A stretch of DNA of 57,494 nucleotides, counting the filler, from Dugesia japonica (taxonomy: Eukaryota), in NCBI GenBank assembly GCA_001938525.1. It is 5 parts of 5 records of this genome, joined end to end, with 100 filler letters (N's around TTAATTAATTAA, not from the genome) between each part and the next. Parts side by side here need not be neighbours in the genome. Positions count along the whole stretch, not along the records: positions 9,625 to 21,098 come from MQRL01612674.1; 4 more parts are not named here. One strand, given 5' to 3'. Positions 4,601 to 31,727 of this stretch are shown here, one piece after another. Both the position numbers and the translations under genes were made by a program. The first letter of the stretch is position 1. Each line of letters begins with the position of its first letter. The notes under the pieces are model-generated. The model was not told the origin of the DNA and did not search any database. It saw only the letters and a list, made by a program, of their open reading frames with translations.

Positions 4601-6313
4601 ATATTGAAATGAGATATATTGATCATCGGAATGTGGAATTACTTTTCTTATTTCATTTGGATGTGAATATAAAAGTTGTCTGAAGAATAAATGATTCTCA
4701 TAGCCCATTGCATTATGGAAATAAAATGGGATAAATAGATTGCTTTTAGATTTATCTTGAAGATTGCATTCAGAATGTGCATAACCGCGAAATTCTCCTG
4801 TAAAATGATTATGATCCATTACTGGAGCTGTTGTTGTTAGTTTTTCACAATAGTAACAGTTTTCATTATTATATTCTGGAATGTCTGATGTGCATTCTAA
4901 TTTTAACTTTTTAAAAATTATATCTTTAAATTTTAAATTAATATTTTCAAGGAACTTGATAAATTCATTAACAACATGTTCACCTGAGAACAGATAATAT
5001 TTAGATTCCATGAGATTATTATATTCACTGTGAAGATAGACACCTAGAGATATTGCTTCTTGAGATTTATTTTCTTTTGTGTAAGCTTCGAAATCACCAT
5101 ATAGAATGAATGGTATTTTATTTTTAAAATAGTTCTTTTTAAATTCGAAATAATCTTCTATTGGAAATTTTACTTCAGCTGTTTTCTGGTGGATGCATTC
5201 TTGTTGATGTTTAATTAGAACTTCTTTAGATGAAGATTGATTCATACAACCAAGACATAATTTATTTTTATAAGATGTGTTGAATAAAATTTCAACATTT
5301 CGAACAAGTGAATAGTGATTTTTATAAATTAAGAGATTACATTTATTTTCTTCTGGTGAAGGTTTTGTTTCATAATGTGAAATATAAAGTGATGATAGTT
5401 TAATTTTATCATTTAACTCGAAAACATTTATTTTGTAATCATTTAATTTTTCTAGTTTTTTGATATCATCGATTCTAGCAGGAAAATTGATATTAGTTAT
5501 TTTTAATTCTGATAGATGTGGAATATAATTAGTAACTCTTCTCGCGTTATGAAAAATATATTTATGTGCAAGGACAGAATACAATAAACATTTGTCATCT
5601 TTGTTTTGTATATTAACAATGCCATATTTTTTTGAAAATGGTTCTGGAAGTTCACAATACGTTCCACCTCGTTTTTTATTTTTTTCAAATTTTATTACTT
5701 CAAAATTATAATCAACAATATGATCAATTGTCCAGTTAGATTCTTTCCTTTCTCTTTCATCTATAAAATTTTGCACTTCTTCTATCATCTCGTGTATTTT
5801 ATCTTTAAAACAATCAGATGTATAAATTTTTCTTATTCTTGTGTATGAGTAGTATAATGAAGTGACATCTTCTTTTTTATATAAAGTATTGATGCCAATT
5901 CGTATTTTAAATCTTTGTTCCATTAAATTAAAATCTCGTGTTATTTTTTCTAATTCTGGTAAAATTGGTAATACTATTTTTAATTCATATTCTGAAATGT
6001 TTCTTCCAATTTCTAGTTTTCCATTATTTTGAATTTTAATTTTGTATCCAGGATATGAATTTTCATTAAAGATATCCACAATTTGTAATCCATTTCCCGG
6101 GTCAATGTAATCTTCATCATCACTTTCGCCACATGCGGTTTTTTCCAGATGAAGTTTATAATAATAATCCGTTTTAAATAACTTTTTACATAAGGCACAT
6201 TCAATGTAATCTTCTAAAGAAATTGTATAACATGTTTTAGATCTTACATGTGAATTTAGTGCACTTTGCGTTTTAAATGTTTTATTACAATTAGTACAAA
6301 TATACATGGCCAT
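1634..6313 (-). CDS. Protein-primed family B DNA polymerase (pPolB) precursor containing an intein
   Basis: 1559-aa ORF. Motifs: ExoI ILYGDFEA, ExoII FHNAMGYE, ExoIII YMKLDVLILAD, Pol A YLDANSLYASCM, Pol B KLMNNSFYGK, Pol C YSD/TDS (split). Also N-terminal Zn fingers and CYYC..DHNHFTGEFRGYAHSECN. The C-terminal tail spans an N gap (1810-1968). Confidence 0.95.
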   Translation of the reverse strand: MAMYICTNCNKTFKTQSALNSHVRSKTCYTISLEDYIECALCKKLFKTDYYYKLHLEKTACGESDDEDYIDPGNGLQIVDIFNENSYPGYKIKIQNNGKLEIGRNISEYELKIVLPILPELEKITRDFNLMEQRFKIRIGINTLYKKEDVTSLYYSYTRIRKIYTSDCFKDKIHEMIEEVQNFIDERERKESNWTIDHIVDYNFEVIKFEKNKKRGGTYCELPEPFSKKYGIVNIQNKDDKCLLYSVLAHKYIFHNARRVTNYIPHLSELKITNINFPARIDDIKKLEKLNDYKINVFELNDKIKLSSLYISHYETKPSPEENKCNLLIYKNHYSLVRNVEILFNTSYKNKLCLGCMNQSSSKEVLIKHQQECIHQKTAEVKFPIEDYFEFKKNYFKNKIPFILYGDFEAYTKENKSQEAISLGVYLHSEYNNLMESKYYLFSGEHVVNEFIKFLENINLKFKDIIFKKLKLECTSDIPEYNNENCYYCEKLTTTAPVMDHNHFTGEFRGYAHSECNLQDKSKSNLFIPFYFHNAMGYENHLFFRQLLYSHPNEIRKVIPHSDDQYISFQYKNIRFLDSYRLCPTTIEKMGITLGKINNHKILDSFNLKPKKIFFPYDYVTGKNANEVMQLLKSDKIPTQDEFYTVLKQKGISDQEYQEFLEDFSHHENLWQYMLHYMKLDVLILADYVENFRVLCLNFYKIDPCYCYTAPGLTWEAGMRFTRQKLKYAKPKTYNTFLKFERGVRGGYSGEEGERQVFSFDKSRDLSRRLNQAQKEDLLDIILADDLELLDNHLNKLIKPTYIKYLDANSLYASCMTKPLPTGEFIECTKLEYEPSTEIFNFLYEVDLDYPREIHDKTKYFPLAPDRILITNEMLSNYQLSFTRKLTKENIKLTMNQFNKKNYIILGSTLDLYLQLGMKLKKIHSKYKLPVSTWLKDYILFNIEQRSIAKRNKDEFGVDFFKLMNNSFYGKTLENIRNRCNVEIVGTDKQLLRLAAKPTYLSSKIFTLNNEIVSKMGAVHLAKTNLKYNKFPYLGFTILEYAKEVMYNFVYNQLEPKIKDNYKIHYSDSVTHDTPVLLRNKKDKKPMIKMISEISPHYYNDHDNDTALCEFEKYYSYPGNLEIWTKSNWVPLKKVIKHTTTKKIYRVRTHLGIVDVTEDHSLLDITGKEIKPKDVTLETELLHNKFKFFRNKNKNSTLQETCQNAKFQDSTFRDQNSKFRDTILQDSYQDKISLATAYFHETSLGKNLIITEDTPNQYKLKEIKPKDISYKIQDIRFLRQIEEEVYDIETQDGTFNSGFPLIIKNTDSVFIEILGEDNLKILNSLTGDNLFQMKDEMPNSEILKCNFIKPKSYAYEYQNKDNKISFNKKHKGVQSFNPIGMREFDSVLKDPKKIIYGINYSLKSELHDIKLTQQKKIALTGYSDKRIIEDNATRTWPHGNEFECEKCNXXXXXXXXXXXXXXXXXXXXXXXXXXXXXXXXXXXXXXXXXXXXXXXXXXXXXXENENEIENENETINEKIWHLRLDKINKKLACQNLIEENLTFNKIKLLQMYFNNKHET
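2399..3109 (-). mobile_element. Mini-intein (237 aa, precursor residues 1069-1305) inserted in Pol motif C
   Basis: Block A SVTHDTPVLLR, block B VDVTEDHSLL (TxxH), block F EEVYDIETQDGTF, block G PLIIKN followed by Thr+1. Removal restores YSDTDSVF. No intact LAGLIDADG motifs. Confidence 0.95.
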
Positions 6314-6349: not shown

Positions 6350-7728
6350 TTGAGTAAATTTGGATGAGTAAATTTGGAATTTTTATTTTAGATTTTTTAT
6401 TTTTAGATTTTTATTTTAGAATTTTATTTTAGATTTTATTTTAGAATTTTATTTTAGTTTGGGTGAATTTGGAGTGGTATGTTTTATTTTAATTTTTATT
6501 TGAGAGAATTTGGAGTGGTATGTTTATTTTAATTTGTGACATGATTTATTTTAATTTTTATTTGCGACATGATTTATTTTAATTTTTTATTTGAGTGAAT
6601 TTGGGGTGGTATGTTTTATTTAAATTTGACACATGATTTATTTGAATTTTTATTTGAGTAAATTTGGAGTGGTATGTTTTATTTTAATTTGAGACATGAT
6701 TTATTTTAATTTTTTTATTTGAGTGAATTTGGGGTGGTATGTTTTATTTAAATTTGTCACATGATTTATTTTAATTTTTATTTGTGACATGTTTTATTTT
6801 AATTTGTGACATGATTTATTTTAATTTTTATTTGTGACATGATTTATTTTAATTTGTGACATGATTTATTTTAATTTTTATTTGTGACATGATTTATTTT
6901 AATTTGTGACATGATTTATTTTAATTTTTATTTGAGAGAATTTGGGGTGGTATGTTTTATTTAAATTTGTCACATGATTTATTTTAATTTTTATTTGAGT
7001 GAATTTAGGGTGGTATGTTTTATTTAAATTTGTCACATGATTTATTTTAATTTTTATTTAAGTAAATTTGGAGTGTCATGTTTTATTTTAATTTGCGACA
7101 TGATTTATTTTAATTTTTATTTGTGACATGATTTATTTTAATTTGTGACATGATTTATTTTAATTTTTATTTGAGAGAATTTGGGGTGGTATGTTTTATT
7201 TAAATTTGTCACATGATTTATTTTAATTTTTATTTGAGTGAATTTGGGGTGGTATGTTTTATTTAAATTTGTCACATGATTTATTTTAATTTGTCACATG
7301 ATTTATTTTAATTTGTCACATGATAAAATTTTAATTTGAGTGAATTTGGAGGTTTCATTTTTAATTAAATTTGTCACATGATTTATTTTTAATTTAATTT
7401 GTTGAATTTATTTAGTGAATTTAGAATGAGACATGTTTAAATTTTAGATTTGAATTAAAAAAATGCGCATGATAAATTGTTACATGTAAAATGCGCAAAC
7501 ATTTATTTAATAATATGTCTAAATTTATTTGAAATGAATTGGGGATACCCCTTTTTTGAGTGAATTTGGATGAGTGAATTTGGAGTTATCATTAAATATG
7601 GTAAAATAACACGTGATTTTTGAATTTTCATTTCGGTACGGTAAAATAACACGTGATTTTTGTATTTGTCACGTGATTTTTCTTTACCATACTGCACTTG
7701 AGTGAATTTGGGGTGTTTTATATCTACT
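6350..7728. repeat. Polinton subterminal/TIR repeat array
   Basis: Interleaved modules GAGTGAATTTGG(G/A)GTGGTATGTTTTATTT and TTTGT(G/C)ACATGATTTATTTTAATTT, many copies. The first motif recurs right up to the terminus. Confidence 0.85.
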
Positions 7729-8392: not shown

Positions 8393-9568
8393 AANAAANA
8401 AATAAANAAANAAAATAATATATTTGTAAAATATTTAAGTATAATATATTGCAATATATAACTTGCTTTTAAATAATGTAATAAGTTAATTGATGATTAA
8501 TAATAAAAAAATGAAATGATTTATCATTTGCTAAGCTTCTCGCGGAAGTATTTGAAACTACACTTTTCTATATCAATGATTGCTCCCGATTAAAAAGTCA
8601 ATTTTTTTCATATTTTCATAATTCATTATAATTTTTCATTTTTACATTATTATGACTACATTAAGAACGTATATATTATTATTAATAGTTATTTAAATAT
8701 TCAATTATCTAATTTATCAATGGTAATTCTTCAAGATGTGGGATATTAGAAAATAAAAGAAAACGTCTGATATATCTTACCTATCCGGATAAACTATTGG
8801 ATTATTAATTATCATTTGATAAAGTAGGAATCTGTTACAGTTCTCATAAGGAACCTATAATTAAATCAATGAAATCATTAAACGTAAAAAGTAATTAACA
8901 ACCTTTCCATATAAGAATGCAAATAGTGTGATCCCCAATGCCCAAATATCTAAGGCCTATACAATTTATAATTATTAAATTATATTCAATTAAGAAAAAT
9001 TTTAATTATTATATTTATTAATTATCAACTTTATTAGAAAATGATATTAACTATTATATTATTATTTTNNNNNNNNNNNNNNNNNNNNNNNNNNNNNNNN
9101 NNNNNNNNNNNNNNNNNNNNNNNNNNNNNNNNNNNNNNNNNNNNNNNNNNNNNNNNNNNTATCACACACATAATTTAATGAATCACTGTTTTTTAAATAT
9201 AAATAGTTTAAGTTATCTCACAATATATTTCATTTTTTCTTTCAGTTTTATCAGTGGATATCGTTTTAAACAATTTATTTATATCCATATATTTTATGAA
9301 TGAGATCATATTAGATAAAAATTACTGAAATTTCATTGGATTAAATTAAAAATTCATTTTTCATAAATTTATATGTATATATATATATATAAATATATGT
9401 GTGTTTTTGTGTATGTGTGTCTTTGTGTGTTTATATAAAAAACAATTGAAAGATGAAAAATCATTACAGACTCAGTACAAGTGTTAAAGTCATTATTAGC
9501 TAATACTAAAATACTTTTTCCTATNNNNNNNNNNNNNNNNNNNNNNNNNNNNNNNNNNNNNNNNNNNN

Positions 9569-9580
9569 TTAATTAATTAA
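9569..9580. other. Artificial scaffold linker TTAATTAATTAA
   Basis: Six-frame-stop 12-mer embedded in N runs; identical at four places in the window. Confidence 0.95.
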
Positions 9581-9625
9581 NNNNNNNNNNNNNNNNNNNN
9601 NNNNNNNNNNNNNNNNNNNNNNNNT

Positions 9626-9891
9626 TAATTATTTTCCTTATTGCTTTTCTTCGTTTTTTATTGTTAAATTAATAATTTTCTTAATTGACTATAATGATGG
9701 CTGGTTGTATTGTTCATATTCATTATCGTCACTTCTTCATTTAACTTTTGATTTATAATTTAATAGTTGTACTCGTTTTCTTACTTCTTTTAGTTGTTCT
9801 CCAAAAATAATTGTGTAGCTCACTTTCCTTACCTCGCCTTTGATGACCCCCGTGGTTTTGATTCTCTTCATCTGGATGTTTCACCCCAACA
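9626..9891 (-). repeat. Start of putative 3' LTR (5'-TGTTGGGGTGAAACA...)
   Basis: TG start preceded by purine-rich AAGTCGGAGAGCGA. The same 15-nt start begins an independent repeat copy at 48781. Confidence 0.55.
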
Positions 9892-10287
9892 AATCGCTCT
9901 CCGACTTGTTTAAATTCCGTCCCGGAATTTGCCATAGTTCGTCCTCGTTGCAGAAACTCTTTTATCCCCAATAAAACTGACAGAGCAAGGTGAATTTATG
10001 GTCATTACAGGTTATTTATTTAACACATACCGAAAAATTTCTACATTATACATATAATTACCGTATACATCAATACATTTATAGTTCATTTGTCCGCTAT
10101 GAGCAATGAGTCGTTTATAGTCCAAGTACTAATTACAGTTTATTTACATTAGGCCGTAATCGTTCTAGTCGACTTCATCTACTAAGTGGTCCTGGTTGTT
10201 AGCTTGTATAGCAGAGCCATATTTTTGGAATATTTCTGTTTCGATGGAGTGGGATAGGTTTCTTTTAAAATGATGGTGGTCGAGTAT

Positions 10288-11331
10288 TTAGGTTTTACTG
10301 GATATCCAACTGGGCTTTACAGAGTCGCGAGGAATGCTTTGAGGTTCTTGAATTACCAATGGTGTTGGTTTCCTAGGTTGGATTGTAATTATGGAAGGTG
10401 CTGGTGCTAGGTGTGGAACCTGATTGATTATTTTACTTATCCATTCTGGTATTTTGGATTTATCTGGAGCTGATGTGGGTTTCTGGATTATTAAAGATGT
10501 GTATTTTCTTGGTGGACTAGAGATTATTGGTTGCAATTCAGGAGCAGCAGGATTTAGTGTTGATTTAGGAAAATTGAAAGTGGCTAGACCACTTGGTTGG
10601 AAAGGAGTTGTTACCCTTATTGGGTGGGAGATAGGTCGGTGATTTGTATACGATTCCTGAAGTTTCTTAATTTCGGAGAATTGTTCAAATAAGTGTTGCT
10701 GTTTTTCCTTTAATTCTTCCTCTTTCTCATGGTAAAGGTTACGTAACTCAATGATCTCCTGTTCGAGTGCTTCTATATATTGCTGTAGAAATTCATTCCT
10801 TTGCTGGCATTCTTGTATTATAGATTCGAACTCGAAGGACAATTTATCGATACCTGCACGTACACCCTCTCTATTAGCCAAGCTTATCAGAAGCTGATTC
10901 TCGGTAGCAAGGTNGTTCTTTTCGAATTGGGTGTTAAATAGTTTCATTCTGAGGATTTGGGTATTCTCTTGTTCGATAGATAATTTATCCTGAAGTTCCT
11001 TTCTTCTGGGTTCTATCTCTTCGTATTTGCTCTTCTACCTTTGAGCTTGTTTAATGGCGTTTATTTTTGCTCGGTTGGCATCAATGTTACTCTTAATTTA
11101 TTTTTGGTGGGACTGACATGACCGTTTCCTCCTTTCCAATTCCTGGCTGGCTTTCGTTACTTGGCTTTCTAATTTGTTATTATAATTCTGCAATTGTAAG
11201 TTTGAGAGTGCCTCGATTTTGGATTTCAATTTCCATTTTAGGACTTCAGGTACAGTGGTAAGGGTTTGTGTTTGGATCTGTATAATTTGGATCTCATTAC
11301 GCAAGTGAGTGATTAAGTTTTCGTTGTTCAT
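10288..11331 (-). pseudogene. Accessory ORF: long coiled coil plus Pro-rich tail with PAM2-like motif
   Basis: ORFs 11098-11331 and 10288-10947 are in the same frame, separated only by in-frame stops. Heptad-rich E/Q/K/L sequence; STLNPAAPELQP motif. Confidence 0.65.
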
Positions 11332-11429
11332 TTCTAAAATCAGAGAGAGAGATTACTTTATTATAATAACAAGTTTTCAATTATAAGTATATATAATCAT
11401 ACATTATTTACATATTTAGATTTAATTAT

Positions 11430-12629
11430 TTATTGAAATTTTATTCCTAGTGCCCTTCGTTCGATTAACTTCCGACACATAGGGTATTCATTTAAGTTTA
11501 TAGCACAATTATATCAAAATTTTTTGAAATGTCCACATGGTAAAAATACGACCTCGATGGTTTCCACAAGGCAGATCACACAATCATGATCAAGCAATAC
11601 CCATTCTTGTTCATATTTTTCCTGGGGTTCTACTGATCGAAGTGATATTTGATATAATTTGAATAGTGTGATTAACTCGGTGCCTTTCTCTGCAACCGTT
11701 TGTTTTAATAGCTGTTTGATAGTTAACTGATCTAGTTTTAAGATATTAGACAGCCGGTTGACCTGTAATTCAACTGCCATTTCTATTCTGTGGCTAGACA
11801 TATTCCATTCTATTTTACACGTGGTTGGCTTTATTTCTCCCTTATTGATTTGATTTAGTCTTGAGCCTGTTACTCTATGGAATATCGTTGCTGGTAATTT
11901 TTCTATTCCTTTTAATATCAGAGTTTCTCGGTTGCAGGTAGTGCATTTGACAACTTTGTCATTCGCCTTTCGGACGAGGTATAATCCGTCCATTGTCTTG
12001 TCTTTCAAACCTGGTAATTTTTTAAATGTTTTCTCTCTTTCTTCGATATTCCATTCGAGATCTTTTCGTACGTCTACTTCTGCTAAGTTCTTTATAATTT
12101 TACAATATAACTTCTTTGGTTCAATTGTTGTTTTTTCGTTTTCGGGGTTTCTTCCCCTAATTGGTTGAGCTTTGTTATTTACGTTTACATTTAGTAGAAA
12201 AGGACAGGTAGGAAACCACTTCCTATGTGCTCTATTAGGTTGCTCGTTCTTACCCCACATGTGTAGTAAACCTTGACAATATATGCATTTCACTTTATCT
12301 GGTCGCTCCGGGGTACCGACATAGTAAAACCCAGATTTGGCTAAAGCTTCAATCAGTCCATATAGATATCTAGGTAATTCGGATAGTGATTTCTTTCTTA
12401 TGTTTTCGTCACGATATTTTTCGTCGAAAACTTTTATCGTACTATAACACACTCTCTTCCGTATGAAATTTTCTGGTACTGCAAATAAGTTGCAGTAGTG
12501 CATTATGTTTTGTGTTACTGAAGTTTGCTTGACTTCCTCTAGTCCTTTGCTCATACCAAATAATTCAATGTCCGAGTCATTCATTATAATTCTGGCTTCG
12601 TTTGTTGATAAGTCCAAATCGAATTCCAT
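11430..12629 (-). pseudogene. Inhibitor-of-apoptosis (IAP)-like gene: BIR, degenerate BIR, RING
   Basis: BIR: EALAKSGFYYVG..DKVKCIYC..LHMW....AHRKWFPTCPFL. Second BIR-like: REKTF..GLY..VVKCTTC..H. RING: CVICL..VVFLPCGH..(TGA)YNC..YPMCR, read through the TGA at 11516-11514. Intronless. Confidence 0.9.
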
Positions 12630-12867
12630 TATCTACAAAATTTACATTATTGTTTTGGTTATATCATACTATTACATTATTTTCAATTCGGGTCCAATAA
12701 GATGTTTTAGTTTAAATGGGGCATTTATTTAGGTGCTTTTCCATTTTATACCGAATAATAATGTATATAAACCTTTTATTTATTTATTTATTTATCTATT
12801 TATATATATATATTTTTATATATATTTATTTATATATATTTTTTTTAACTTCCCTCTCTCTTAGATT

Positions 12868-13434
12868 TCAGACAAAACTGACTTGGTTGTGGACACTCCG
12901 GGTGTTGAGTGTCTCGATTTCCCATTTTTGTGAATTTACTGATTTTTTAAGGTATTTGAGTTCTTTTGTCTGATCAGAAATTAGGTCGTGTTGTTTGGCT
13001 ACCAACTCCATTGTATAATTTTGCTTTTCTGTAGCAATTTCCAACATTCGTCGATTTTCTATAATTTGTTGACGACACATAAGGGTTTCTGCATATAGAT
13101 TTTCATTTTAAAGTTGAAGAATTTCATTTTTCAGTTCCAATTTGCACCAATCCAAGGGTTTCATTGTTATTAAGGTTTGTATTAATTGATTTTGATTGTG
13201 TTCTAGTTCTTCTAATCGTTGTTGGGTTCATTGAGTTTGGGTTCTGGCGCTATTCCATAATTCTTTCATTTCCTCGTTATGATTTTGCCAGATTTCGTTT
13301 ATCGTTGCTTGTGGGAGTATATTGTTTGTAAGATTATTTATTAGTGGGAAATTTCTGGTGACTAGTGGACTTGCTGCTAAATCAGTTTGGGAGTCCATAA
13401 CTTCATTTTCGGTTGTTGCTTCTTTTTGGTTCAT
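12868..13434 (-). pseudogene. Accessory coiled-coil ORF (~190 aa)
   Basis: ORFs 13228-13464 and 12868-13080 share a frame and are separated by two in-frame stops. ATG at 13434 follows CATTTAG-GA. Confidence 0.6.
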
Positions 13435-13539
13435 TCCTAAATGCGAAACGTTGATTAGTTTCACCGTTATTTCTATTTACATATATAGTTATTAAACAAG
13501 TTTACAATTTACACTATTTACACGTAGTTTCCTTCTATT

Positions 13540-15240
13540 TTAACACACTAATATACCCGGTGCCTGATAAGGTCTAGGCACATATGTGGGTACTCCGCTC
13601 ATTACTGGCCCCAGTGGTAATCCTTCGTAATTTGGTGGAGCTAGTGGTAGATGATGTCTTTTCCGATTATGTTTCTTTGGTTTGGGTCTTGTTTGCTTAC
13701 AGAATTGCACATACAATGTGATTAATATCAGTACCACTATTAGTATGCTCCCTATTATTGCTATATTGTCTGTTCCAGTTTTGGTTGGTACAGAGGTGGT
13801 TACTGGCTCCTTCATGGTAGTGGGTCCACCCCCTATCCTCATGTGATCTTCCGGTGGTTGGTACTTCCTCAGATTTCTCATTAAGTTGTTTAGAAAGTTG
13901 GTTCTTTTTGTTTCCTTTTCTTTGTTGGGAGCTGGAATTGGTGTTTCTGTTGCTGTTGTTGTTGTGGTTTTTTCTGTATTGGTTGTAGTTCTTATTTTAA
14001 TCTTTGGTCTAGTGATGTTCAGTTTTATTCTGACATCTCGATTTATAACTGTTGTGAATTCCATTTCCCACATTTCTGGTCCAAAACTACCCATGTTCAC
14101 TCCTTGTTCATGTAACGCATTTTCTTTGAATCCTGATATTTCTTCATTATACGCCCATCCCCATTGAGCGGTTGAATAGTATTTCTGTGCCGTTAATTGT
14201 TCCTTTTTCTCGTTGGTCCATAGTTGATATGTTTTGTTCATTTTTTTGATCCGTACAGGTCCTGGACCTTCCTGCCAATGAGAACCCCATTTCCCAAATG
14301 TGTATTTCGTTACCGAGTGGAGTCCTTTTCCCCGATTAATGGCTACACCTTTTTGCTCCCTAAATACCCGTTTCTTATCTGTGGATTCTTGGACTATATT
14401 CTTCCAAAATTGAATAGGGAATATGTATTCATTCTGTGGGCAGATTTTCATGCTCTCGTCTCCTTTCCGTTCCCATACCCATCCTCTCTGTCGTGGGTTT
14501 TCTATGATTTAATAAATTAGGAGATTGCGGGCCTGATGCATGTCAAAATTTATTTGGTGTTCTTACTCGCCCTGATCTCTTTTGCGTGTTCCTTGAATTT
14601 CTTGTGTTGCATACATCCACCAGTCCTTCATGTTGAAATGCATTGCCTGACCTTCCACCGGTGCGTCTCATTTAAACCATAGGCTTGCTGTCCACCCATA
14701 CCAAAATAGTAATATTCGACTTCCTTTGGATCCTTCAATGGTAGGTTTTAGCAATATCAACTCGCATCTGTATCCTTCAAAAACTTTTATTTCCCGCTTT
14801 CGCCCGTCTGTGCTCATTGTTCGAATGGTGGTTTTGTGGTCGTCGACACAGACCCTATGTTCTGTTAATATTAGCTCGTTGGTCCAACAATCTTGACATT
14901 TAATCCCCTTCATCACGATTATTAAAATAGTGAGTATGACTTGTCCGTTAGATATTCTATTCTGATTTAAGATCTGTATTTGTTGAATTGCCAGAGTTGG
15001 CAATGCCAACCCAAATAGGATTATCCCTGCAATTCCATATAGCATAATTGATGTTGGACAATCTTTACCCATATTCCCGATTACTTTTATGGTTAACCAG
15101 ATTAATATGCCATAGTCCAAATTTGTGTTGACTACTGCCCATAACAACAAAGAGATTTTAATTATTATTTCCAATGTAATCTCATTCTTGTTTCTTTTGG
15201 TGGACTCGTTTTTTGATTTTCTTGGTTCTGTTTGATCCAC
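13540..15240 (-). pseudogene. Membrane protein region of the polyprotein: hydrophobic segments, Trp-rich ectodomain, Thr-rich stalk, TM helix, PPxY tail
   Basis: ORFs 14668-15240 and 13540-14451 are in frame, separated by three stops. Signal-like VILTILIIVMKGIKC, stalk TTTNTEKTTTTTATET, TM IAIIGSILIVVLILITLYV, tail PPNY. Confidence 0.6.
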
Positions 15241-15246
15241 CTCATC

Positions 15247-16158
15247 TTATATCATTGTCATTTCCATATCTTTCGCCTTTCCCGGCGTTACTCTGACTAA
15301 TTGTCTTTCTCTTCCTTCTATTCCATCTCTTTGGAATTGGAATATTTCTCCTATTGACTTTATTTGTTTTTCCAAGCCCTCCTGTGGATTCATGATACTG
15401 CTTGGTTTAGATTTCCTCCGGTCCAATTTACTTTGGGTAGCTGGTGTGCTCATGCTCCCTGGCAATTGGATCTTCAATGGTTCGTATACTCCAATCCAGT
15501 TCCATTGTACTAGTGTACCGTGAAATAGATGGATGGATGTTAACAATTCTTCACTGCATATTTCGACACAAGATAAACACAACTTTTTTAAGGTGGATTG
15601 CCGGATAGGTGCTTCAATTGGTAGTTCGATTTGTGACCCTTCACAGTCTTTTTTGAACCAGTTTTCTCGTCTTGATAACCATGTTTTCTGGTCGTAAAAA
15701 GCCTTTATAGTGATTTTTAGTATAATTATACATTGTGTACAGTTTCTTTCTAGCTGAGTTAGTGACAGTGGACATTTTATCTTTTTGATATGGGCACAAT
15801 TCTCCTCTGTTCTCGGTATTTGGATTCCTTGATATATGATTGGATAGATTGTAGTGGCGCTCATAGCCTCTATCATAAGTGGTCTGTGCATTTGGTTACC
15901 TTAATTAAAAGATATTGTTTTAGCTTTTTGTTTCATAACGATTTCTTTATTATTAACCAATGCCACACTTTGCTGTCTTTGCTGAGATTGAATATTATTT
16001 GGTGTATGTTCGATTCTCCTCAATTTACTTGTTTGTTCTATCACCAAGATACCTGGTGGGGTATTTATGATTGTATTATTCTCCTTAGTTTTTTCCTGGT
16101 TGACGGCGTGTTTAGAATCATCTGCCTTTAACACCCTATTTATCTTTTGTAATTCTGA
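15247..16158 (-). pseudogene. Post-integrase polyprotein extension with a Cys/His-rich domain of unknown function
   Basis: In frame with the integrase. Contains CAH..C..CTQC..C..CLSC..C..H..H. Confidence 0.45.
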
Positions 16159-17610
16159 TTATGTACTTTCTGAATTTGCAGCAGGTAGACTCGTTTCTTG
16201 TTTTACCGTCTCCGTTATTGACCCTTCCCCGTTTCCTTCAAACTCAGCGTCCTCGCTGAGACCGTTTTTCTTTATTATTGTTTCTGTACTCTTCCCTGAT
16301 GAGAGATTTATTCGTGGTTTTCTAAGTACCATCATGGCTAGTTGTGATCGTAATGGATAGCTGTGTGATATATTCAGTTCTAGACTCTCCGACTTGCGTG
16401 GCCTACCTGGCCCTCTACGTTCCGTCGTAGTAGGCTCGGCGCTTGTGGCTGGCACCACTTCTTCTGTCACCGCTGCCTTTTTGCACAAGTTAGCGTGGTA
16501 TATCTTTGGTTTCTCTAATAGGTTCCCTTTCTTTCGAACCTTGAGATTAGTTTCCGTTACTTCAATTACGTCATAAGGTCCTTGCCATGGCCTTTGTAAT
16601 GTTGATGTCGTACCGACACAAATTTCCGGTAAATTTATCAATACCATGTCGCCTTTTTTGAAGGAATGTTGGGCTGCTGATTTATCATGTAAATCCTTAT
16701 AGCTCTCCTGGTAGAATCCGACATTCTCCTTGGCTTGTTTCCATATTTTCTGCATGGTCTCCTTGAAATTTGCCGCAAAATCGGTTTCGTCTTGATATTG
16801 TGTTATTGGTGGTTGGTATTCCAGGTCAATAGGCATGTTGCATTCTCTGCCATACATGAGACTAAATGGAGTATATTTTGTGGCAGGATGCACACTCATT
16901 CAGTAAGCGAATAGACATAGCTGAATGTGTTTATCCCAGTTATTCTGTTCCTTTTGTGCATAACTAGACAACATATTGATTAGAGTTTTATTGAATCTTT
17001 CTGTTAATCCATCCGTCTGTGGATGATAAGGTGATGTCCGCAACTGGTGTATTTTGAGAAAGTTTGATATTTCTGCTAATATATTACTCATGAAGTTTTT
17101 TCCTTGGTCAGTCAATATTTTCTTGGGTGTACCATATCTACTGAAAGATTTTCGTACCAAAATGTCTGCTATTGTGGTTGCTTTCTGATTCTTCGTCGGA
17201 AATGCCTCTGGGAATTTGGACAGATAATTCATTATGGTAAGTATGTAAATATTCCCACTTAGCGTTGGTGGTAGTGGTCCTACCACGTCCATAGCGATAA
17301 TTTCCATTGGGGCTGCTGGTACCGCGATTAATTTTAATAACACTTTTACTCTTTTGCCTGTTTCTCTTTTGGCCGCACATATTTTACATTTAGCAATCCA
17401 TTCTTTTACTGATTCCGTCATATGTGGCCAATAATATTTCTGCCTTAATTTGGATTCGGTCTTCTTATGAGACATGTGTCCGCCGAGTACACTATTGTGA
17501 TATTGCTCGAGTAATTTATCTCGCCTTGCTTTAGGGATAACTAACACGGTATTATCTCCGTCCTGAGCTGTCAGCCATTCTTTAGTGAATGCATATCGTC
17601 CGCCATTGCT
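16159..17610 (-). pseudogene. Gypsy integrase (HHCC, DDE core, GPY, AT-hook)
   Basis: H..GGH...CKIC; IAMDVVGPLP; ILTDQGKNF; PYHPQTDGLTERFN; PWQGPY; RRGPGRPRK. One in-frame TGA at 16902-16900. Confidence 0.95.
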
Positions 17611-17614
17611 CTTT

Positions 17615-18330
17615 TCCTTTATCTGATATCAGATGTCCTAAGTATGTCACCTTATTTTTGGCCCATTCGCATTTAGTAGGTTTCACTTTTAAGTTCCGTT
17701 TACGAAGTCTTACAAACACACTACGTAGGTCATTGAGGTGTCCTTAAAAGGTTGGCGAATAGATTAGCAGGTCATCGTATATACGCCATACATTGAGATA
17801 TACCATGTGTTACGTAATTCATCATGCGTTGAAAAGAGGCTGGTGCATTGGTAAGCCCAAATGGCATACGGATAAATTGATATAAGTCTTTGCCTGTGGA
17901 AAAGGCCGTTTTCTCTCTATCTTCTGGTTTGATTTTTATTTGCCAGTAGCCGCTTCGCAAATCCAAATATTTTAGCATTATATAGTAATTGCAATAATTC
18001 GTTGATATCTGGCAATGGATATGTGTCTTTCTTACTTTGGGCATTTAATCTTCTGTAATCAATGCAAAATCTTTGTGTGCCATCCTTTTTATCTACTAAC
18101 ACCACTGGCGATTGCCATGGTGAGCAGCTAGGTTCTATTACCCCGATTTTTACCAATTTGGCTGTTTCCTTATTTGCAAATTCTTTTTTCTCCACTGTCA
18201 TGGCGTATGGTTTCTGTTTGCACGGGGTTTCATCGGTTAGTGGAATGGTATGCATCGTCGCTGTGCACATACCCAGCTCTTCATTGGTCCATGCAAAAAT
18301 GTCTCTAAATTCCTCTATCAGTTGCAATAT
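17615..18330 (-). pseudogene. Gypsy reverse transcriptase, frameshifted; thumb and RNase H deleted
   Basis: SPWQSPVVLVDKKDGTQRFCIDYRRLN, LDLRSGYWQI, KTAF, RMPFGLTNAPASFQR, frameshifted AYI/DDLLIYS, KCEW..VTYLGH. The sequence then jumps directly into integrase-proximal sequence. Confidence 0.95.
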
Positions 18331-18739
18331 TGGTTGTTTCTGGTCTTCTGATAAAGTTTCCGTCTCTACTTTAAATGTTCTGTCGATTTCTGGTTCAGTG
18401 GCTATTTCTTCTATCACTTCGAGCTCCGGTTCGATGGGGGTTAGGGTACCCATCCTGGAGTTTGGCTTGATTGTGATATCTTTTTCTGTGAAATTAACTT
18501 AACTAACTGGTACTTCCCCACTTTTGTTGACCGTGGTTATTCCTCCTGCTGTCGGTAGCTCGTACTGGTGTGCAAATCCGTCATACGGTTCGAAATAACA
18601 ATCTCCTTCATAGGCACTTTTGGTACTGACTACACAATATACTTGACATCTACTAGGTACCAAAATCTTCTCTGTAGTGAATACTTCATGATCCTTCACA
18701 TGGGTATAACCTTCCAATGATTGTAATCGTAATGTTGAG

Positions 18740-19050
18740 AAGTTTAATATACAGTTTTTCATCAGAACGGGAAGAATGTCTATTCCTAGTATACACTGTC
18801 TCATCATTTCTACTATGATCATATTGTGTTTAATTCTATCATCCNNNNNNNNNNNNNNNNNNNNNNNNNNTCCAAAAATTTTGAGGCTACTACCATTTGC
18901 TACATCTGCTGTAGTATTTGTGGGTAGTATGTTTTTGTACTCGGTTATTGCAATTTCATCAATTGAAAACAACGATATGGTTGCTCCTGTGTCCAATAGA
19001 GCTGTTATAGGTCGGCAGTTGATTTTAACCATAATGGTTAATACTGGTCC
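18740..19050 (-). pseudogene. Retropepsin (aspartic protease) domain 2
   Basis: ALLDTGATISL...ANG...CILGIDIL. Confidence 0.9.
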
Positions 19051-19339
19051 ACCGTTGAAACCTGCGCAAACCACATCTGAAGAGTTTGGACTGATGTTTA
19101 ATTGTGTTTTGTTTTTCCATTTTGGTTCTCGTTCTTGAAACCGTATCCAATCGTTCCTTATCATGGTGTTTGTATTGGTATATCTCCGATGGTCTTGTGT
19201 TGGGTTATTTCGTTCATTCTGGCCGGTTAAGCGTTGCTGCAGCTGGTTGGGTGTTGGTTGATTCCATTGTTGTGGTCGCTTCAATTTAGTTATTATTCGA
19301 GTTTTCTGGTAGCTTATCGGAGAATACTACTGATCATAA

Positions 19340-19670
19340 TTTTCCCGTATTGTTAATTTTCTCAAATCCAATATTCCCTCCGGACACAGGCGTGGCAGAA
19401 GATCCAATCCTAATAAACAGTCGAATGCTAATTCATTCATTATCTGCACTTTATGCCAGAACCGTGTTCCGTCGCTTTCTATTGCACATATTGCTTCTCC
19501 AATGGGTGAGATTTTTTCTCCAGAGGCCGTGATAATAACTCCTTTATTGATTGTTATTCTAAGCAGACGATAATCTTCTAATATCATTTTGTGGACTAAC
19601 GTCGTACTTGCCCCGGTATCAATGATAGCTTTTACCCAGTTTCCGTCGATTTTTATCCTTTTCTGTAATA
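19340..19670 (-). pseudogene. Retropepsin (aspartic protease) domain 1
   Basis: AIIDTGASTTL...TASGE...CLLGLDLL. Confidence 0.9.
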
Positions 19671-20309
19671 ATTTTGCTCTCTGAGAAATCATTATACATA
19701 CCATCTGGGTTTCTAATTTATGATCCTCAGCGATTTGGTTATTCGGGGAACGCAAGTTTTGATTGGTCACTCTTTGGTCCATAGTTGATACATTATTCTC
19801 TGTTAACAGGGCCACATTGGGAGCTTGTGGTGGACTTATATACGGGTTGTTGTATAGGGGACCTGGTGCCCATACTTGTTGGGATGGTTGGTTCATGGGT
19901 TGCCAATCATATTGTGGATAAGCGTTATAATACATTTGTGCTGGTGCTGGTGTGCTTTCTCCTCCTCCGAATCTTAGCGCGTTTTTCAGTCGTTGCATTT
20001 TGCTGATTTTTTCGTATTGCTGCCTTTTGAATTCCAAATCGTATTCCATGGAAGTTTTATAACTAGGTACATGAGGTGTTCCACTGCTTTCTCCTCTGTC
20101 ATCGTCGCTGCTACTACTACTTTCATCTTTATTCTTAAACCGTTCTTTGAACTGGTTAAAATATGATATTTTCTTTTTAGCATTGCTCATTTCTTCGCAT
20201 AATAATCGGAGTTTCATTATGACCTCCTTGTCTGATCCTCTTATTTGTCCGAGCTTCCGAATGAATCTCTTTACTCTGTCGATGTCTTTGGAGTGACTAT
20301 TAANNACCA

Positions 20310-21098
20310 TAGTTTTGGCTAAAAATGGAAATATTCCTGTTACCATTTTCCAATTCACCTTTTTCTCTCTTTTGTATATATCAAGACATGCGAACAATTG
20401 AGTAATCACTACCCGGGTTACCGAAATTATCAGCATAACCCCCAACAATCCTGCCATTGCTTGACCAAATATTATAAATCTTCCCCACATTTTCCGCATG
20501 ACATTTTCGGTGGCTTTTTGGAAATGATCCGCGGATAAGAGTGCATCGTAGTTTACCCGTCCATCCATGTTAGTCCCACTGGTTAGTTGTACTATGTTTG
20601 ATAGAATCTGCATCCTTCGGACTGGAAATAACATATATTCTCTGGCTTTCTCTAAGTCTTCTTTACTATAGATTCTTCCTTTATTTACGTCGATTGGGGT
20701 GAATTGCATACCCCGTTTAGTCGTAACATTGAAAATTTTCGTGGTTCGACTCCTACTGCCATTCGTTGAGGAAATCCTATCCATGAAAAATCTGTCATTT
20801 CGTATTGTAGTCCAAATACATTGGAGCAATTTATGATATTCGGCCTATAGCCCAATGGCGATATTTTTCGAGTGATTGGTTGTACATACCGCTTTTCATT
20901 GTTGTGGATGATTTCTATCTCGTTGTAGCAGTGCTTTGGATTGGAGGAAAATTCTGCATCTATCACCTTGCATTTGTATAGGTACATTACCTCCCCTATC
21001 ACTCGACCGAATTGTCCTTTCTCCAACGGAAGTAGTGGGGTGACACTATCAGGGTTTGTAACTGCCATCGCTAATTTTGTTTTTAATTTATTTTTTTT
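20310..21098 (-). pseudogene. C-terminal half of a chuvirus (Jingchuvirales)-like glycoprotein / env
   Basis: GEVMYLYKC..V..CYNE....YVQPITR..G...C....Y...W, then after a frameshift near 20720: G.IYS.EDL..AR.YMLFP.RR and MWGRFIIFGQAMAGLLG plus TM. Pattern recognised from chuviral G proteins. The 5' part is cut by the scaffold end. Confidence 0.75.
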
Positions 21099-21142
21099 NN
21101 NNNNNNNNNNNNNNNNNNNNNNNNNNNNNNNNNNNNNNNNNN

Positions 21143-21154
21143 TTAATTAATTAA
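21143..21154. other. Artificial scaffold linker TTAATTAATTAA
   Basis: Same 12-mer within N runs. Confidence 0.95.
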
Positions 21155-21713
21155 NNNNNNNNNNNNNNNNNNNNNNNNNNNNNNNNNNNNNNNNNNNNAT
21201 CGATGGGATGGATTGTCGTTGTTGATTAGCTAAATTAAATGACGAAAACACTTATTATGATTCGATTTGTCATAATTGATTCAACTCTGCTTTTTATGGC
21301 AACCCCCGACTATTCAAAGAATCTCTCATTTTGGGAACAGGGTTTTATCGAGAAATTTACACCAGGGTAATATGTTAGACCAGTCAGGGTTGCATCTAAA
21401 CAAATTAAGGGAAGTTCCAGGTAGGATCCAGACGCGACGACTCAAAATGTNNNNNNNNNNNNNNNNNNNNNNNNNNNNNNNNNNNNNNNNNNNNNNNNNN
21501 NNNNNNNNNNNNNNNNGGTTAAAGAGCGTTATTAATCATTTAAATAAGAATACTCGTAATGTCCATTTATGGAAATTGAATTTATTTCTGCTATATTATA
21601 TTGTTGGGTATTATTGAGTATATAAATCGGTAAACCGGATAATTTACACTCGGGTAATCGAAATTCTACTAAGTCTAAGTTATTAGGAATTATAGCATAG
21701 CAATATTAACAGG

Positions 21714-27019: not shown

Positions 27020-29458
27020 TCACCATTCAATATATTTTGATGTTTCTATGTTATCTACAAATTGAAAATCTTTATATTGTAAAGGCTGTGTTAAGGCCCA
27101 ACCATATAAATTATTTAAATAAATGTAAAGCAGTGAGATATTCTCATCTGCCTGAACGTAATTGGTATTGACAAATGTCATGTATCCACGAATTCCCGAC
27201 TTAAATAGCCGATGGATTTCTGGATCCTCTAGCAAATTCCAACTGAATATCCATCGTCTTGAGAGCTCTTGACCAGCTCAATTCCGGTAAGGAAACCAAT
27301 CTAAGTATCTCCAGTCCATGCTCCTCAAGTGCCTTTCTTCTTAATGTTTCAAACACATCAGCCAACAAATAAATGTCTAGCTTCATATTCTCCAGCAGAT
27401 TATTACTTCCAGATTTGACCTATGCTAACTTTGTAATTTCATATTCGGAATCTGTGATTTCTGACCAGGGTAGACATGTTTCATTAATCAGCATCTCATA
27501 AGACGTTGCGAATTTTTAAGGAAATATGCCTTTACCCTTGTGTCCATATTGCGGAAATTCTGATGCTGTCAATGTACATTTCTCAAGTGTTGCAGTCAAT
27601 GACGCCAAGAAACTGCTTAGAAATTGTTATGAATCAATGAATCGCACTGTAATATGTGCGAACCACCAACATGTACAAACATTGCAAGAAATTTTTCTTT
27701 TGTCTGTTTAATCGGCTTGACATTCCAATGGTTAAACTGATTCAAGGCACACTTGATAATATAATACGAATCATAACCCTTAAAGTTATGAAATACCACT
27801 GGCAACTCTATTCTGATCTTCCGAGATAAGTTGCACTGATTGCACGCAGCTCCAAGGTACTTGCCGGAAAAATGGTCATGATTCCGAACTAGTATTTTAT
27901 TTGCCTTTTCACACATGTAACAATGTATACTATTCATAAATACCCCCTGTTCTGATGTTGACAAATTCATTTCCATTCTCATTCATCTTTTACCAGGGTG
28001 CAACCATATTTTTCGCCAACTGATCAATGCACTGGAAAAACTAAACCATACAATTTTCTTCAGCAAAAGAATAATATTTGCATTTTTTCGTACAGTACAA
28101 CAATGGAACTAGCAAAAGCCCTACAGCTATTGGAACATGTTTTACTCTATCATCATCTTCTGGGATCAGGATTGCTTCAATATCTGCATAAATAACAAAC
28201 GCTGTTATTGTTTTTCCAAAATCCTTGAACCGCAATTCCTTATCTTCCGGCATTGTATACAAGGTTATTTCAGTGATTATGTAACATCAAATGTAGCCTG
28301 TGAATAAAATCCGTGAAGACACTTAGGACACCATTTTCTTTCTATTCGATATTTCAGAGTCCGATCCTTCAAACTTAATAAACGATCTAAATTTACCACA
28401 GCTGTGTAATGAAAGTTTTGCACATTTTCCAAAATCAGTAAATTCAGAGTACGTCCATTTGGGTTTTTCGATAGGAAAATTACATCCCCATATGGATTTT
28501 TGTACAAAATCGCGTCATCTTCTTCATCTACCAAATCATTATATTTAAATACCGTGATGGACAAATCGTTTCTCCTTTCAAACTCTGGAATATTGATTAG
28601 CTTCGTCGGCATTTTCTGGTCATCGTAAAGCAAATCATTTAGGAAGCATTCATATTTTTGCGGACGATCACGATGATCATATTTTAATACTGCCAGTATT
28701 CTGTATACGAAACACATTATCTGTGTTGTGAACATTCACTATTGCATAGAATCTATGTAATGATCCAGTACTTTTGATATATGATCGTCCATATAAATAA
28801 ATTACTGAAGAAAATTTCACCATAATAAATCTCAACTGCATATTTTGATATATGATCGTCCATATAAATAAATTACTGAAGAAAATTTCACCATAATAAA
28901 TCTCAACTGCAGTATTCTTTTGATCTTCCATCTACTACTTAATTCAGAATACGTGAAAATTTCTTCATTTGCTTTTTCTGTTATTTTCTGTAAAAACTAA
29001 TCTGAATATATCATGGCTTTGTATGACCATCTCCTTCTCTTGATCATCCTCCTCTTTTCGAATTCGACATGAATTCCAAATTGAACTTNNNNNNNNNNNN
29101 NNNNNNNNNNNNCTTCCTCGATCTTATTTCTGATATAAACAGGCACATAAACACTTTTCATTTCCCACTGCTCTACCTTAAACTGAAGACTAACATAGGC
29201 TTCATTAAAATCAGTTTTCCTGACATATTCACCAATAATTGTTGTTATTCTTTTCTTCTCCTTTTCCACATGTTCTTCCCAAAATTGATATTTTCGTTTT
29301 CTTATCTCCATATTTTTCTTAAAAGATTGTTGCTCATCATCAATTTGTTTATAGCAAATTGATGATGAATCAACCAATCTGCCTATTGAAAAAGAATTCT
29401 TTTTATTAAATGTAAGTTGTTGTTTATTATCATCAGATGATGATGATAAATCAAGCAA
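27020..29458 (-). pseudogene. Second, heavily degenerate Polinton pPolB (N-terminus through motif A)
   Basis: Fragments collinear with the intact pPolB: CFVYRILA/FHYTAV, FVIYADIEA, CYMC..NHDHFSGKYLGAACNQCN..VFHNFKGYDS, MKLDIYLLADVFE, GIRG, NNLYGWALTQPL. Many frameshifts and a ~68-bp tandem duplication at 28772-28911. Confidence 0.9.
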
Positions 29459-29901
29459 CCCTTCTATACTGAAATCACTCTTTTTATTAATTTCCTTATT
29501 TCCTATAATACTACAAATTGAAAAAGGCAGATTAGTATGTTTAATAGATGAACTATTAAAAACTACAGGGCGCTGCCAATAATTATTAATATATTCATTG
29601 TTTTTTTTATTTTACATGGATTTTTCGATACCTGTAATCAAAAGAAATTATCTTTGTTAATTATAAAAACTTTTAATACCAGAAAAATAAAATAAGTAAA
29701 ATATTTATTTTCATTCATAAACATAAGTAATTATAACTTCGCAATTTTTTTATTTGAAAGAGCTTCTAAAATAACTCTTCTTCTCAAACTCAATTCAATG
29801 GATTACCATCATAGTAAATAAAATGAATTTTAATATAATAAAATTTTTTTTAATTTANNNNNNNNNNNNNNNNNNNNNNNNNNNNNNNNNNNNNNNNNNN
29901 N

Positions 29902-29913
29902 TTAATTAATTAA
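29902..29913. other. Artificial scaffold linker TTAATTAATTAA
   Basis: Same 12-mer within N runs. Confidence 0.95.
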
Positions 29914-31727
29914 NNNNNNNNNNNNNNNNNNNNNNNNNNNNNNNNNNNNNNNNNNNNTTTATATCATTTGTTTTATTGACATACATACTTTTCAAATTAA
30001 TTGAATTCTTCTCATTTAAATTATGTCATTTCTTATTGACTACACAAACAAATTAAAATTCTGTTTTAATTGGTGATCATTTTTCATATCTTAAAATTTT
30101 ACATAAAATTTTTACATTATCATTAAATCGTCATTTAACATTTTAAAACAAATACTCACACGTTATTTAAATTTTAAAATAAATGCTCATATGTTATTTA
30201 AATCGTCATTTAAAATTTGAAAACAAATACTCAAACGTTATTTAAATTTTAAAACAAATACTTATATGTTCTTTAAATTTTCATCAAAAATTCAAATATT
30301 TTTCAACAAAAAGATTTTATGAAAAATGATCTTCAACCACACAAAAATTTCAATTATCTTTACAAAACATACTCACAAGGGTTTATACTGATTTTCCAAC
30401 AAAATAACTCTCATACAAACATAATCAATAAATATAAAATACAATACATGCAATTTCTAAATAATTTCGTCTCAATAGAGCATTTATGCCATAGAATCGG
30501 CATCATCTTCGTTAGATGAAAAGTTATAAAATAGTGAAAGAGTTTAAATGAAAGAAGAGGATATGATTTTGAGCAATGAAAAAGAAAAAAATGGAACGAA
30601 ACAGAGAATTAAATCGATGACTACTAAAAAACAATTACAAGCATAACCAACTGACCATGAAATATCGCCACCTATATAAATTATTAAAATGGGATCTGAG
30701 AACGATGTTACAAGAAAATAATAATTAGAAACGAAAAATCAATACAATTTTTGAGTGTTATTACGTTATTTTATTGCTATTATTGAAAGTCCAAGAACAG
30801 GAAAAATCCACGATCAACATTTGTGATGAACTTTAATAGTATGAACGATTCTGAGAGTCCACTTAATTGAATATCAAATGTTTATCTATAATTTCTAATT
30901 TATTATGTTTATTCAGTTATTATTTCAGTAAATGAAATATAACCTGTACCCAGCCAATTTTTAAAGAGCAGAATAAAAAGTAACGGGCAGAGAAGACATT
31001 GATCAAGAACTAGGAAAAAAGACTCAAGAAACAGAACAAACCAATCAAATGGCAAGCATCGAATTAACAGAAATCAAGAACTAACGCTTTCGCCCAACAA
31101 GTAGCTAGTGATCAGCATTGTAAATTCAAACATAAAGATAAAAGCAGCTCAAGCCGCAATAAACTTGGCAGTCAAAATGAAAGATAAAACTGTAATAACG
31201 AAGTGATGTAATTTTGAGCCAAAAAGTGGGGAAAATGAACATAAAATCTAATTGCAACCAGCCAGGTCATGTTTCAAAATCAACAAAAGAATTAAGTACG
31301 AATTTAGTACTTAGTTCTAATTTTAGAAGTAATTAATAAAAAGATTATAATATTTTAGTTATTTTTTGATTTTTGGCTTAGTCAATTTAAAAGTCATTTA
31401 TTGTTTAATATATTTTAACCATTATTATTTATTTAAATTGGTTTTATTTTTGTCAAAAATATTACTTAATAAATTAAAAACTATAAATAAATTATAGACA
31501 ACTATAGCTAAATAACAAAGAGATGCTTTATTTATCCTTTTCATTCGATTAATATAAATTTAAAGTCATAATTAAAAAATCTAACTTGAATTTTATTTGT
31601 TTAACTCAATTAAATTTAAAATTCTAAGTTCTTAATAAACGAAGTTCAATTTAAAAAAAAATTGTTAAACGGAATTTGACATTTTTAAAATTTAATTTCT
31701 CGATGTCAAAATTATTATAATTATAAA

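Follow-up and report, generated by a model that had tools for sequence, protein, structure and literature searches.

A 57,494-nucleotide stretch of DNA from Dugesia japonica (GenBank assembly GCA_001938525.1), joined from parts of five records and referred to here as the window, holds what its sequence identifies as a decayed Ty3/gypsy retroelement of the Burro / GAG-ENV-POL type, lying in the part taken from MQRL01612674.1 and truncated at assembly gaps. The copy itself is dead, with no function left to maintain, but it appears to descend from a high-copy family whose active members, we think it likely, encode a single open reading frame (ORF) that continues past the integrase and through a second membrane protein. 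The order of this ORF would probably be (Gag)-G-PR-PR-dUTPase-like-RT-RH-IN-linker-Cys domain-membrane protein, where G is a fusion glycoprotein, PR a protease, RT reverse transcriptase, RH RNase H and IN integrase. The stops that now interrupt the frame would be nonsense mutations acquired after insertion. A single ORF is favored because an intact relative, P0005, has this layout, because stops fall inside aligned domains, because two stops are absent from other copies, and because the frame stays open past its stops with no AT-rich spacer. Burro is the most likely match, as judged from the domain combination and the published description, and this match, together with the AT-rich flanks of the element, suggests a triclad flatworm host.

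The frame can be followed over most of the element. A first-pass annotation of this DNA had assembled the polyprotein from two sets of frame-sharing ORFs, one starting at 20829, 19284 and 18453 and the other at 17547, 16899, 16134, 15891, 15240 and 14451. All nine starts in fact lie in one minus-strand frame (start positions divisible by three) and not in two, and that the sets have this frame in common is an accident of the lesions between them. Stops in the frame are found at 20847, 19329, 18501, at eight positions between 17919 and 17631, and then at 16902, 16161, 15903, 15249, 14670, 14565, 14511 and 13542; the five junctions quoted by the annotation are present and correspond to 16902, 16161, 15903, 15249 and 14670. 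From 16161 to 13540 there are 7 stops in 874 codons (6 internal and the terminal one), compared to 43 and 82 in the other two frames. As 2000 base shuffles of this interval gave a mean of 61.0 stops and a minimum of 37, the long frame is real. The extension past the integrase, put at about 870 codons by the annotation, is thus 874 codons from 16161 and 939 if counted from the YPLR motif at the integrase end (16359). Past seven of the nine premature stops, the next 49 codons (all that were tested) are open, and past each of the other two there is a single stop; the four stops tested further downstream (13542, 12870, 11516 and 10290) are followed by 2–3 stops in the tested codons. Windows of 120 nt below 25% GC occur solely at about 9650, 11300–11480 and 12680–12890, with none in 13540–21000. 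AT-rich spacers part the downstream ORFs, and the frame shuts past 13542. Beyond the stop at 13540–13542 there are stops in all three frames and GC is 0.26, and this stop is likely the true end of the polyprotein.

The strongest support for one ORF comes from P0005, a protein of 4029 aa and the only one returned, from 3887 candidates, in a search with the G-PR-PR region, to which it is 24% identical over 97% of its length. P0005 carries G-PR-PR-RT-RH-IN and then 703 more residues in one unbroken ORF, which supports the earlier proposal of an ancestral polyprotein with membrane proteins on both sides of pol. In P0005, a hydrophobic segment (residues 1104–1122) stands directly before G (1114–1752), followed by protease DTG motifs at 1956 and 2177. 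A third retropepsin (3354–3446, DTG at 3370) lies past the integrase, before the membrane module, and the chain ends with a signal-like hydrophobic segment (3548–3566), a Cys-containing ectodomain, a Ser/Thr stalk, an anchor (3956–3974) and a short tail. By eye only, P0005 shows a CCHC knuckle and a ubiquitin-like stretch, neither of which was reported by Pfam. P0005 belongs to a cluster of 20 natural proteins (ENA, Logan assemblies), of which the 15 listed members are all 4026–4029 aa long, come from contigs of 14.6–18.4 kb and keep their extensions open at 94–99.7% identity to P0005. The window and P0005 share the order G-PR-PR-RT-RH-IN-extension, the YPLR at the integrase end, and a final module of signal-like segment, ectodomain of about 295 aa, Ser/Thr-type stalk, anchor and tail. 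They differ in that only P0005 has a third protease past its integrase, in the length of the extension (703 residues versus 939 in the window), and in ectodomain composition (1 Trp and 11 Cys versus 15 Trp and 5 Cys). Since homology between the extensions cannot be detected, P0005 supports the layout of the module and not its shared descent.

Comparison with other copies can also reveal which stops are peculiar to this one. Two contig runs gave 15,613 and 21,348 contigs that aligned to this copy, most commonly at 90–95% likeness and covering 30 of 30 bins, which marks it as an old member of a large repeat family. Whether stops revert in other copies had been suggested as a check, and among the 40 variants listed out of 1686, two do: stop 19329 is missing from 12 contigs that make up the whole depth in run X1 and from a depth of 341 out of 355 in X2, and stop 14565, within the extension, is missing from 8 contigs that make up the whole depth in X1 and from a depth of 672 out of 691 in X2. 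Stops 18501, 17746 and 16902 fall within stretches aligned to P0005, and stop 11516 falls within the RING finger of the downstream BIR-RING ORF; nonsense decay is therefore general in this copy. Six of the nine premature stops are in the extension, compared to an expected share of 0.42 (P = 0.12), a density not significantly unlike that of the enzyme part, and a divergence of 3–5% predicts 3.6–6.1 stops there. A non-standard genetic code was ruled out as the cause of the stops: all three kinds occur among the nine, frameshifts and a deletion are present as well, and elsewhere in the window an ORF of 1559 codons is uninterrupted when read with the standard code.

Care must be taken with the junction between integrase and extension. 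An alternative, which we rate as distinctly improbable, is that pol ends at 16161 (or 15903) and that the membrane protein has an ORF of its own, which shares the frame by coincidence and is expressed through a subgenomic RNA, from its own start or by readthrough. Burro accessory ORFs may indeed stand alone or inside the polyprotein, according to the available text of Arkhipova and Yushenova (PMC6431247). The roughly 150 codons around 16161 form a polar linker without a domain match, and summed contig depth, which is not a copy number, falls from 8,114/21,831 at 15415–15795 (Cys-rich domain) to about 450–1,300 over 13510–15414, which suggests that the membrane part may have had a separate history as a module. 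However, at both 16161 and 15903 there is no AT-rich spacer and the frame does not close, unlike at the true ORF ends downstream. The first Met past 16161 is 75 codons on, although another stands 4 codons past 15903, behind a 30-nt stretch of 20% GC, where a separate start is possible. Readthrough usually uses UAG or UGA, whereas the three stops around the junction are all TAA. P0005, moreover, is continuous at this junction, and we infer that active members of the window's own family would read on across 16161 in the same way.

A second alternative is that the extension was captured from a host or virus, or arose when different repeat copies were joined in the assembly, and in either case never functioned as part of the element. 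The assembly is gappy around the element, the extension has no homologue in the libraries searched, and it is the most variable part of the P0005 cluster, with 51 of 699 columns variable compared to 3 of 650 in G, 5 of 460 in RT-RH, 6 of 470 in IN and 34 of 550 in the accessory region before G; relaxed selection could also yield such a pattern. Yet the assembly has no N gap from 13540 to 18844, contigs of diverged copies cover each extension bin in both contig runs, base composition by codon position agrees between the extension and the enzyme part, and the independent P0005 lineage ends its polyprotein with the same layout of signal, ectodomain, stalk, anchor and tail. We consider this alternative very improbable.

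Several of these observations nonetheless weigh against a single ORF through the membrane protein, namely the possible start past 15903, the variability of the P0005 extension and the depth over 13510–15414, which is about 10- to 20-fold under the bin of the Cys-rich domain and lower still relative to the pol bins. To these must be added that seven of the nine stops, including the junction stop 16161, do not figure among the 40 listed variants. The annotation had described only isolated stops, but the ORFs starting at 15240 and 14451 are parted by three stops in 54 codons (14670, 14565 and 14511). A single intact cluster was found, 24% identical over the G-PR region, and when the window ectodomain was compared to that of P0005, and the Cys region to P0005, the scores were matched by 46 and 228 of 500 shuffles, respectively. 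Finally, the window contains no long terminal repeat (LTR), Gag, primer site or self-repeat, with gaps flanking the element. The depth drop itself fits a membrane module confined to a subfamily.

The domains indicate what kind of element is involved (Table 1). Along the minus strand, a class III glycoprotein is followed by two proteases, a dUTPase-like domain, RT, integrase, a Cys-rich domain and a type I membrane protein, and then by separate ORFs (one of unknown family, one BIR-RING and one coiled-coil-like), all of them broken. Pfam models matched the Monjiviricetes fusion glycoprotein (in 2 pieces), both retropepsins, RT (in 2 pieces) and a gypsy-type integrase. PR, RT and IN stand in gypsy order, with a gypsy-type RT and an H2C2 integrase. 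The glycoprotein (PF24664) and protease 1 share one open stretch, 20712–19330, with no stop in 461 codons, and tblastn aligned the glycoprotein region to P0005 residues 1467–1761 in two frames at 35–42% identity. The two proteases are 26% identical to each other (blastp E 8e-9). A BEL/Pao pol of the Anakin type was considered and rejected: neither the BEL/Pao protease nor DUF1758/1759 matched the window or P0005, and the gypsy-type integrase and retropepsin models matched instead.

Table 1 Features of the element copy and of the ORFs downstream of its polyprotein
Feature	Coordinates	Strand	Evidence and remarks
Class III (chuvirus/mononegavirus-like, gB-type) fusion glycoprotein, C-terminal part	20149..21098	-	PF24664 E 1e-15 and 1.6e-19; 5' end cut by gap 21099-21198; frameshift near 20720; transmembrane segment 20383-20475 (hydropathy)
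Retropepsin protease 1	19393..19656	-	PF13975 E 4.4e-7; catalytic DTG at 19620
Retropepsin protease 2	18772..19035	-	PF00077 E 4.7e-5; catalytic DTG at 18993; 26-N assembly gap inside
dUTPase-like domain, stop 18501 inside	18445..18639	-	PF00692 E 6.6e-4, 19.9 bits (stop read as X; under the curated cut-off of 22)
Reverse transcriptase, three frames, stop 17746	17615..18150 (5' boundary approximate)	-	PF00078 in two frames; tblastn to P0005
Gypsy-type integrase, stop 16902	16306..17595	-	PF17921, PF00665; 46% identity over 431 columns to P0005 2944-3362; H2C2 zinc finger 17368-17538, core 17020-17316, C-terminal domain, YPLR motif 16359
Polar linker past integrase, junction stop 16161	15904..16305	-	Composition: rich in S, K, N, E, I, T
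Cys-rich orphan domain, predicted cytosolic	15250..15900	-	8 Cys between 15798 and 15556, including two CxxC
Hydrophobic segments	15124-15180, 14992-15048, signal-like 14911-14943 (within 14911..15180)	-	Kyte-Doolittle
Trp-rich orphan ectodomain, about 295 aa	14014..14898	-	15 Trp, 5 Cys, 2 N-glycosylation sequons; stops 14670, 14565, 14511
Thr/Pro-rich stalk	13765..14013	-	21 Thr and 9 Pro in 83 aa
C-terminal transmembrane helix (13708-13764) and Pro-rich cytosolic tail with PPxY	13540..13764	-	Hydropathy 3.05
Accessory ORF, family unknown	12871..13476	-	Two stops inside (13230, 13110)
Accessory ORF, BIR and RING (IAP-like)	11430..12629	-	PF00653 E 1.4e-16 (ORF 11514-12629); PF13920 spans X
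Accessory ORF, long coiled-coil-like stretch and Pro-rich tail	10288..11352	-	Stops 11100, 11037

Some domains do not sit where the annotation had placed them, and it had missed the dUTPase-like domain between PR and RT, the fact that an in-frame env is known for Burro (PMC6431247), and the deletion of RNase H. The ORF from 20829 is not glycoprotein from its start: the first 40 or so codons do not belong to it, and the glycoprotein runs in another frame from the gap at 21099 to about 20720 before it shifts. Nor is RT contained in the named frame; it is spread over three frames, and the eight stops between 17919 and 17631 fall there. RNase H, listed between RT and IN, is present in P0005 and deleted here at 17615/17595 together with the RT C-terminus, such that 289 residues of P0005 (RT C-terminus, RNase H and linker) are represented by 19 nt. 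When the RNase H region of P0005 was searched against the whole window, the best match (E 0.47, 28056–28235) lay outside the element. Since gaps 9525–9624 and 21099–21198 bound and cut the element on its two sides, Gag and the LTRs are out of view; P0005 residues 1–1466 gave no match to the window, with the 5' part of the element lying outside it. Ankyrin repeats were not matched in the three minus-strand frames of 9625–13540, where the element is cut by the gap at 9624. The coiled-coil-like ORF, which possibly corresponds to the 'Smc' motif of Burro, gave only weak Pfam coiled-coil matches, below cut-off and to families other than Smc. A protein search at 4261–5000 aa returned only three pseudoscorpion gene models, and the BIR-RING ORF had no relative among metagenome contigs.

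Searches for relatives of the extension must be read in light of the libraries used, which are poor in flatworm DNA, so that a blank search is no sign of novelty. No homologue was found among 964 candidates of 565–2000 aa or 1.84 billion representatives; there was no Pfam match and none in viral contigs, the best PDB E-value was 1.0 and the best Atlas score 0.78. The Cys-rich domain likewise had no match in Pfam, PDB or the representative library. Searches with the integrase or P0005 found no related locus in viral contigs, and P0005 found none in metagenome contigs. Against P0005, no shuffle of 500 scored as high as the stalk, transmembrane helix and tail, a low-complexity region where composition can explain the result. 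A C-x-x-N-E-x-I-L-T motif shared by both ectodomain starts was dismissed as not significant (18 and 46 of 500 shuffles), and a remnant of the third protease past the window integrase was unsupported in all three frames (27, 174 and 8 of 500 shuffles, uncorrected). The P0005 ectodomain may be fibronectin type III-like (Atlas score 0.90, low recognition), which is a lead only. AlphaFold single-sequence models were too poor for a fold search, with pLDDT (predicted local distance difference test) scores of 36 for the window membrane module and 32 for the P0005 ectodomain; the C-terminal transmembrane helix is nonetheless a confident helix in the former. Depth over the Cys-rich domain at 15415–15795 is far above that of neighboring bins, as would be expected if this small domain belonged to a far larger family than the membrane module does. 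About a quarter of each of two RNA runs gave 143 and 11 reads, all partly aligned and mostly below 90% alike, which are uninformative on expression.

Based on the predicted topology and on the established handling of viral polyproteins, a mechanism can be proposed in which the polyprotein would be threaded through the endoplasmic reticulum (ER) membrane while it is translated; the annotation had likewise supposed that it is processed in the manner of RNA-virus polyproteins. An internal signal, represented in P0005 by the hydrophobic segment before G, would put G in the lumen, and the G anchor would halt transfer and leave the proteases, RT, RNase H and integrase in the cytosol. A second internal signal past the Cys domain, among the hydrophobic segments in Table 1, could then send the second ectodomain to the lumen, where it would be held by the C-terminal helix; the number of membrane passes across the 15180–14911 segments is uncertain. 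Cleavage at the luminal ends would fall to signal peptidase, and release of the cytosolic domains to aspartic proteases encoded by the element. Both window proteases retain DTG, and the third protease of P0005 sits where pol would have to part from the membrane module. Retropepsins act as dimers, and tandem protease domains might pair within one chain. The second membrane protein would be an exchangeable accessory module, most likely a surface or trafficking protein of particles or producer cells, and its PPxY tail may recruit Nedd4-type ligases for trafficking or budding. A bolder and more doubtful view is that the Burro-type elements represent endogenous viruses whose envelope consists of two proteins, a conserved class III fusogen encoded upstream of pol and, past the integrase in the same polyprotein, an exchangeable attachment or tropism protein that is freed by the extra proteases, with tandem proteases able to pair in-chain. 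The attachment module would be fibronectin-III-like in the P0005 lineage, whereas here it would have an orphan, Trp-rich fold and a tail bearing a PPxY late domain. If so, pairing in-chain would let a membrane-anchored precursor be cut before particle assembly, and a retroelement would have the split fusion/attachment design of herpes- and paramyxoviruses.

Other mobile elements can be seen elsewhere in the window. The unbroken 1559-codon ORF (1634–6313, minus strand, one N gap near its end) is Polinton/adintovirus-like: it combines a C2H2 finger with endonuclease VII and a family B DNA polymerase of the protein-primed kind (PF03175 E 5e-18). An insert of 237 aa (2399–3109) interrupts motif C of the polymerase; its first residue is Ser and its last is Asn, followed by Thr. 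The insert scores above the cut-off of 24.5 bits with the intein N-terminal model TIGR01445 (27.7 bits), has a weak PDB match to the NEQ068 split intein and, from its sequence, is a candidate intein carried by an element within an animal genome. Directly upstream of the polymerase ORF, a tandem array of 22-, 28- and 63-nt units (6380–7450) could be its terminal repeat region. A second endonuclease VII-like fragment (27617–27982, minus strand) beside the very weak RNase H-like match at 28056–28235 possibly represents, with that match, the remains of other mobile elements, and a Pogo/Tigger-type transposase DNA-binding fragment (HTH_Tnp_Tc5, CENP-B_N) lies at 51689–52093 on the plus strand. The gaps at 9525–9624, 21099–21198, 29858–29957 and 48480–48579 each consist of 44 N, a 12-nt TTAA repeat and 44 N; this is a scaffolding mark, which makes the order of the joined pieces less secure there. 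A number of near-identical direct repeats beside 50-N gaps resemble assembly overlaps.

Among known systems, the GAG-ENV-POL errantiviruses resemble the window and P0005 in that a Ty3/gypsy pol is preceded by a gB/chuvirus-type glycoprotein. According to the available text of Chary and Hayashi (PMC13524379), this order, with an ENV of the HSV (herpes simplex virus)/gB type, is found in errantiviruses of Platyhelminthes, Nematoda and Bryozoa, and supplement 1 lists nine flatworm elements, six of them from Schmidtea mediterranea and spanning 14.5–18.0 kb; by eye only, G of P0005 resembles the S. mediterranea ENV rows. That text describes no extra proteases or post-integrase membrane protein, and 'protease' appears once in its main part. 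Anakin, a mosquito BEL/Pao element, is an LTR retroelement that captured the same glycoprotein family (available parts of PMC12440569 and PMC13524379), but its backbone is BEL/Pao, whereas the window and P0005 have a gypsy-type integrase and retropepsin.

The closest parallel is Burro / GYPSM1 of S. mediterranea and Dugesia, which shares with the present copy an env upstream of PR in a very long ORF, a dUTPase-like domain, a BIR motif and possibly an Smc-like one. As given in the accessible text of PMC6431247, Burro ORF1 is 4873 and 5140 aa long and begins with a Gag with CCHC knuckles; a mononegavirus-like env stands in frame ahead of PR, a dUTPase-like domain separates PR from RT, and BIR and Smc motifs are also present. 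Total length is above 25–30 kb with LTRs, and decayed fragments with stops and frameshifts are known from D. japonica. A giant ORF in which env precedes pol without a change of frame is therefore already published. Gag, MATH, Ubl, BCL2, ankyrin and the LTRs of Burro are not seen in the window, the 5' part being lost at the gap. The accessible text makes no mention of a second protease, a frame of about 900 codons past the integrase or a second membrane protein, and the available text of neither PMC6431247 nor PMC13524379 describes a second membrane protein, located past the integrase, or two to three proteases. Literature searches, judged by titles and the opening of abstracts, likewise brought up no paper that does, although published Burro maps may already show tandem proteases or the long C-terminus. 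BURRO1 is intestine-enriched after smedwi-2 knockdown (PMC8532177, available text), and a surface module, if truly exchangeable, would be an obvious candidate for element tissue preference in planarians and for host–element conflict. The layout also offers a testable case of an LTR retroelement that may use ER-threaded polyprotein processing. Lastly, the domains listed in the accessible text of PMC6431247 fill just half of Burro ORF1, and the layout proposed here would assign a large part of the unannotated half: a pol that lies between two membrane proteins and carries two or three proteases.

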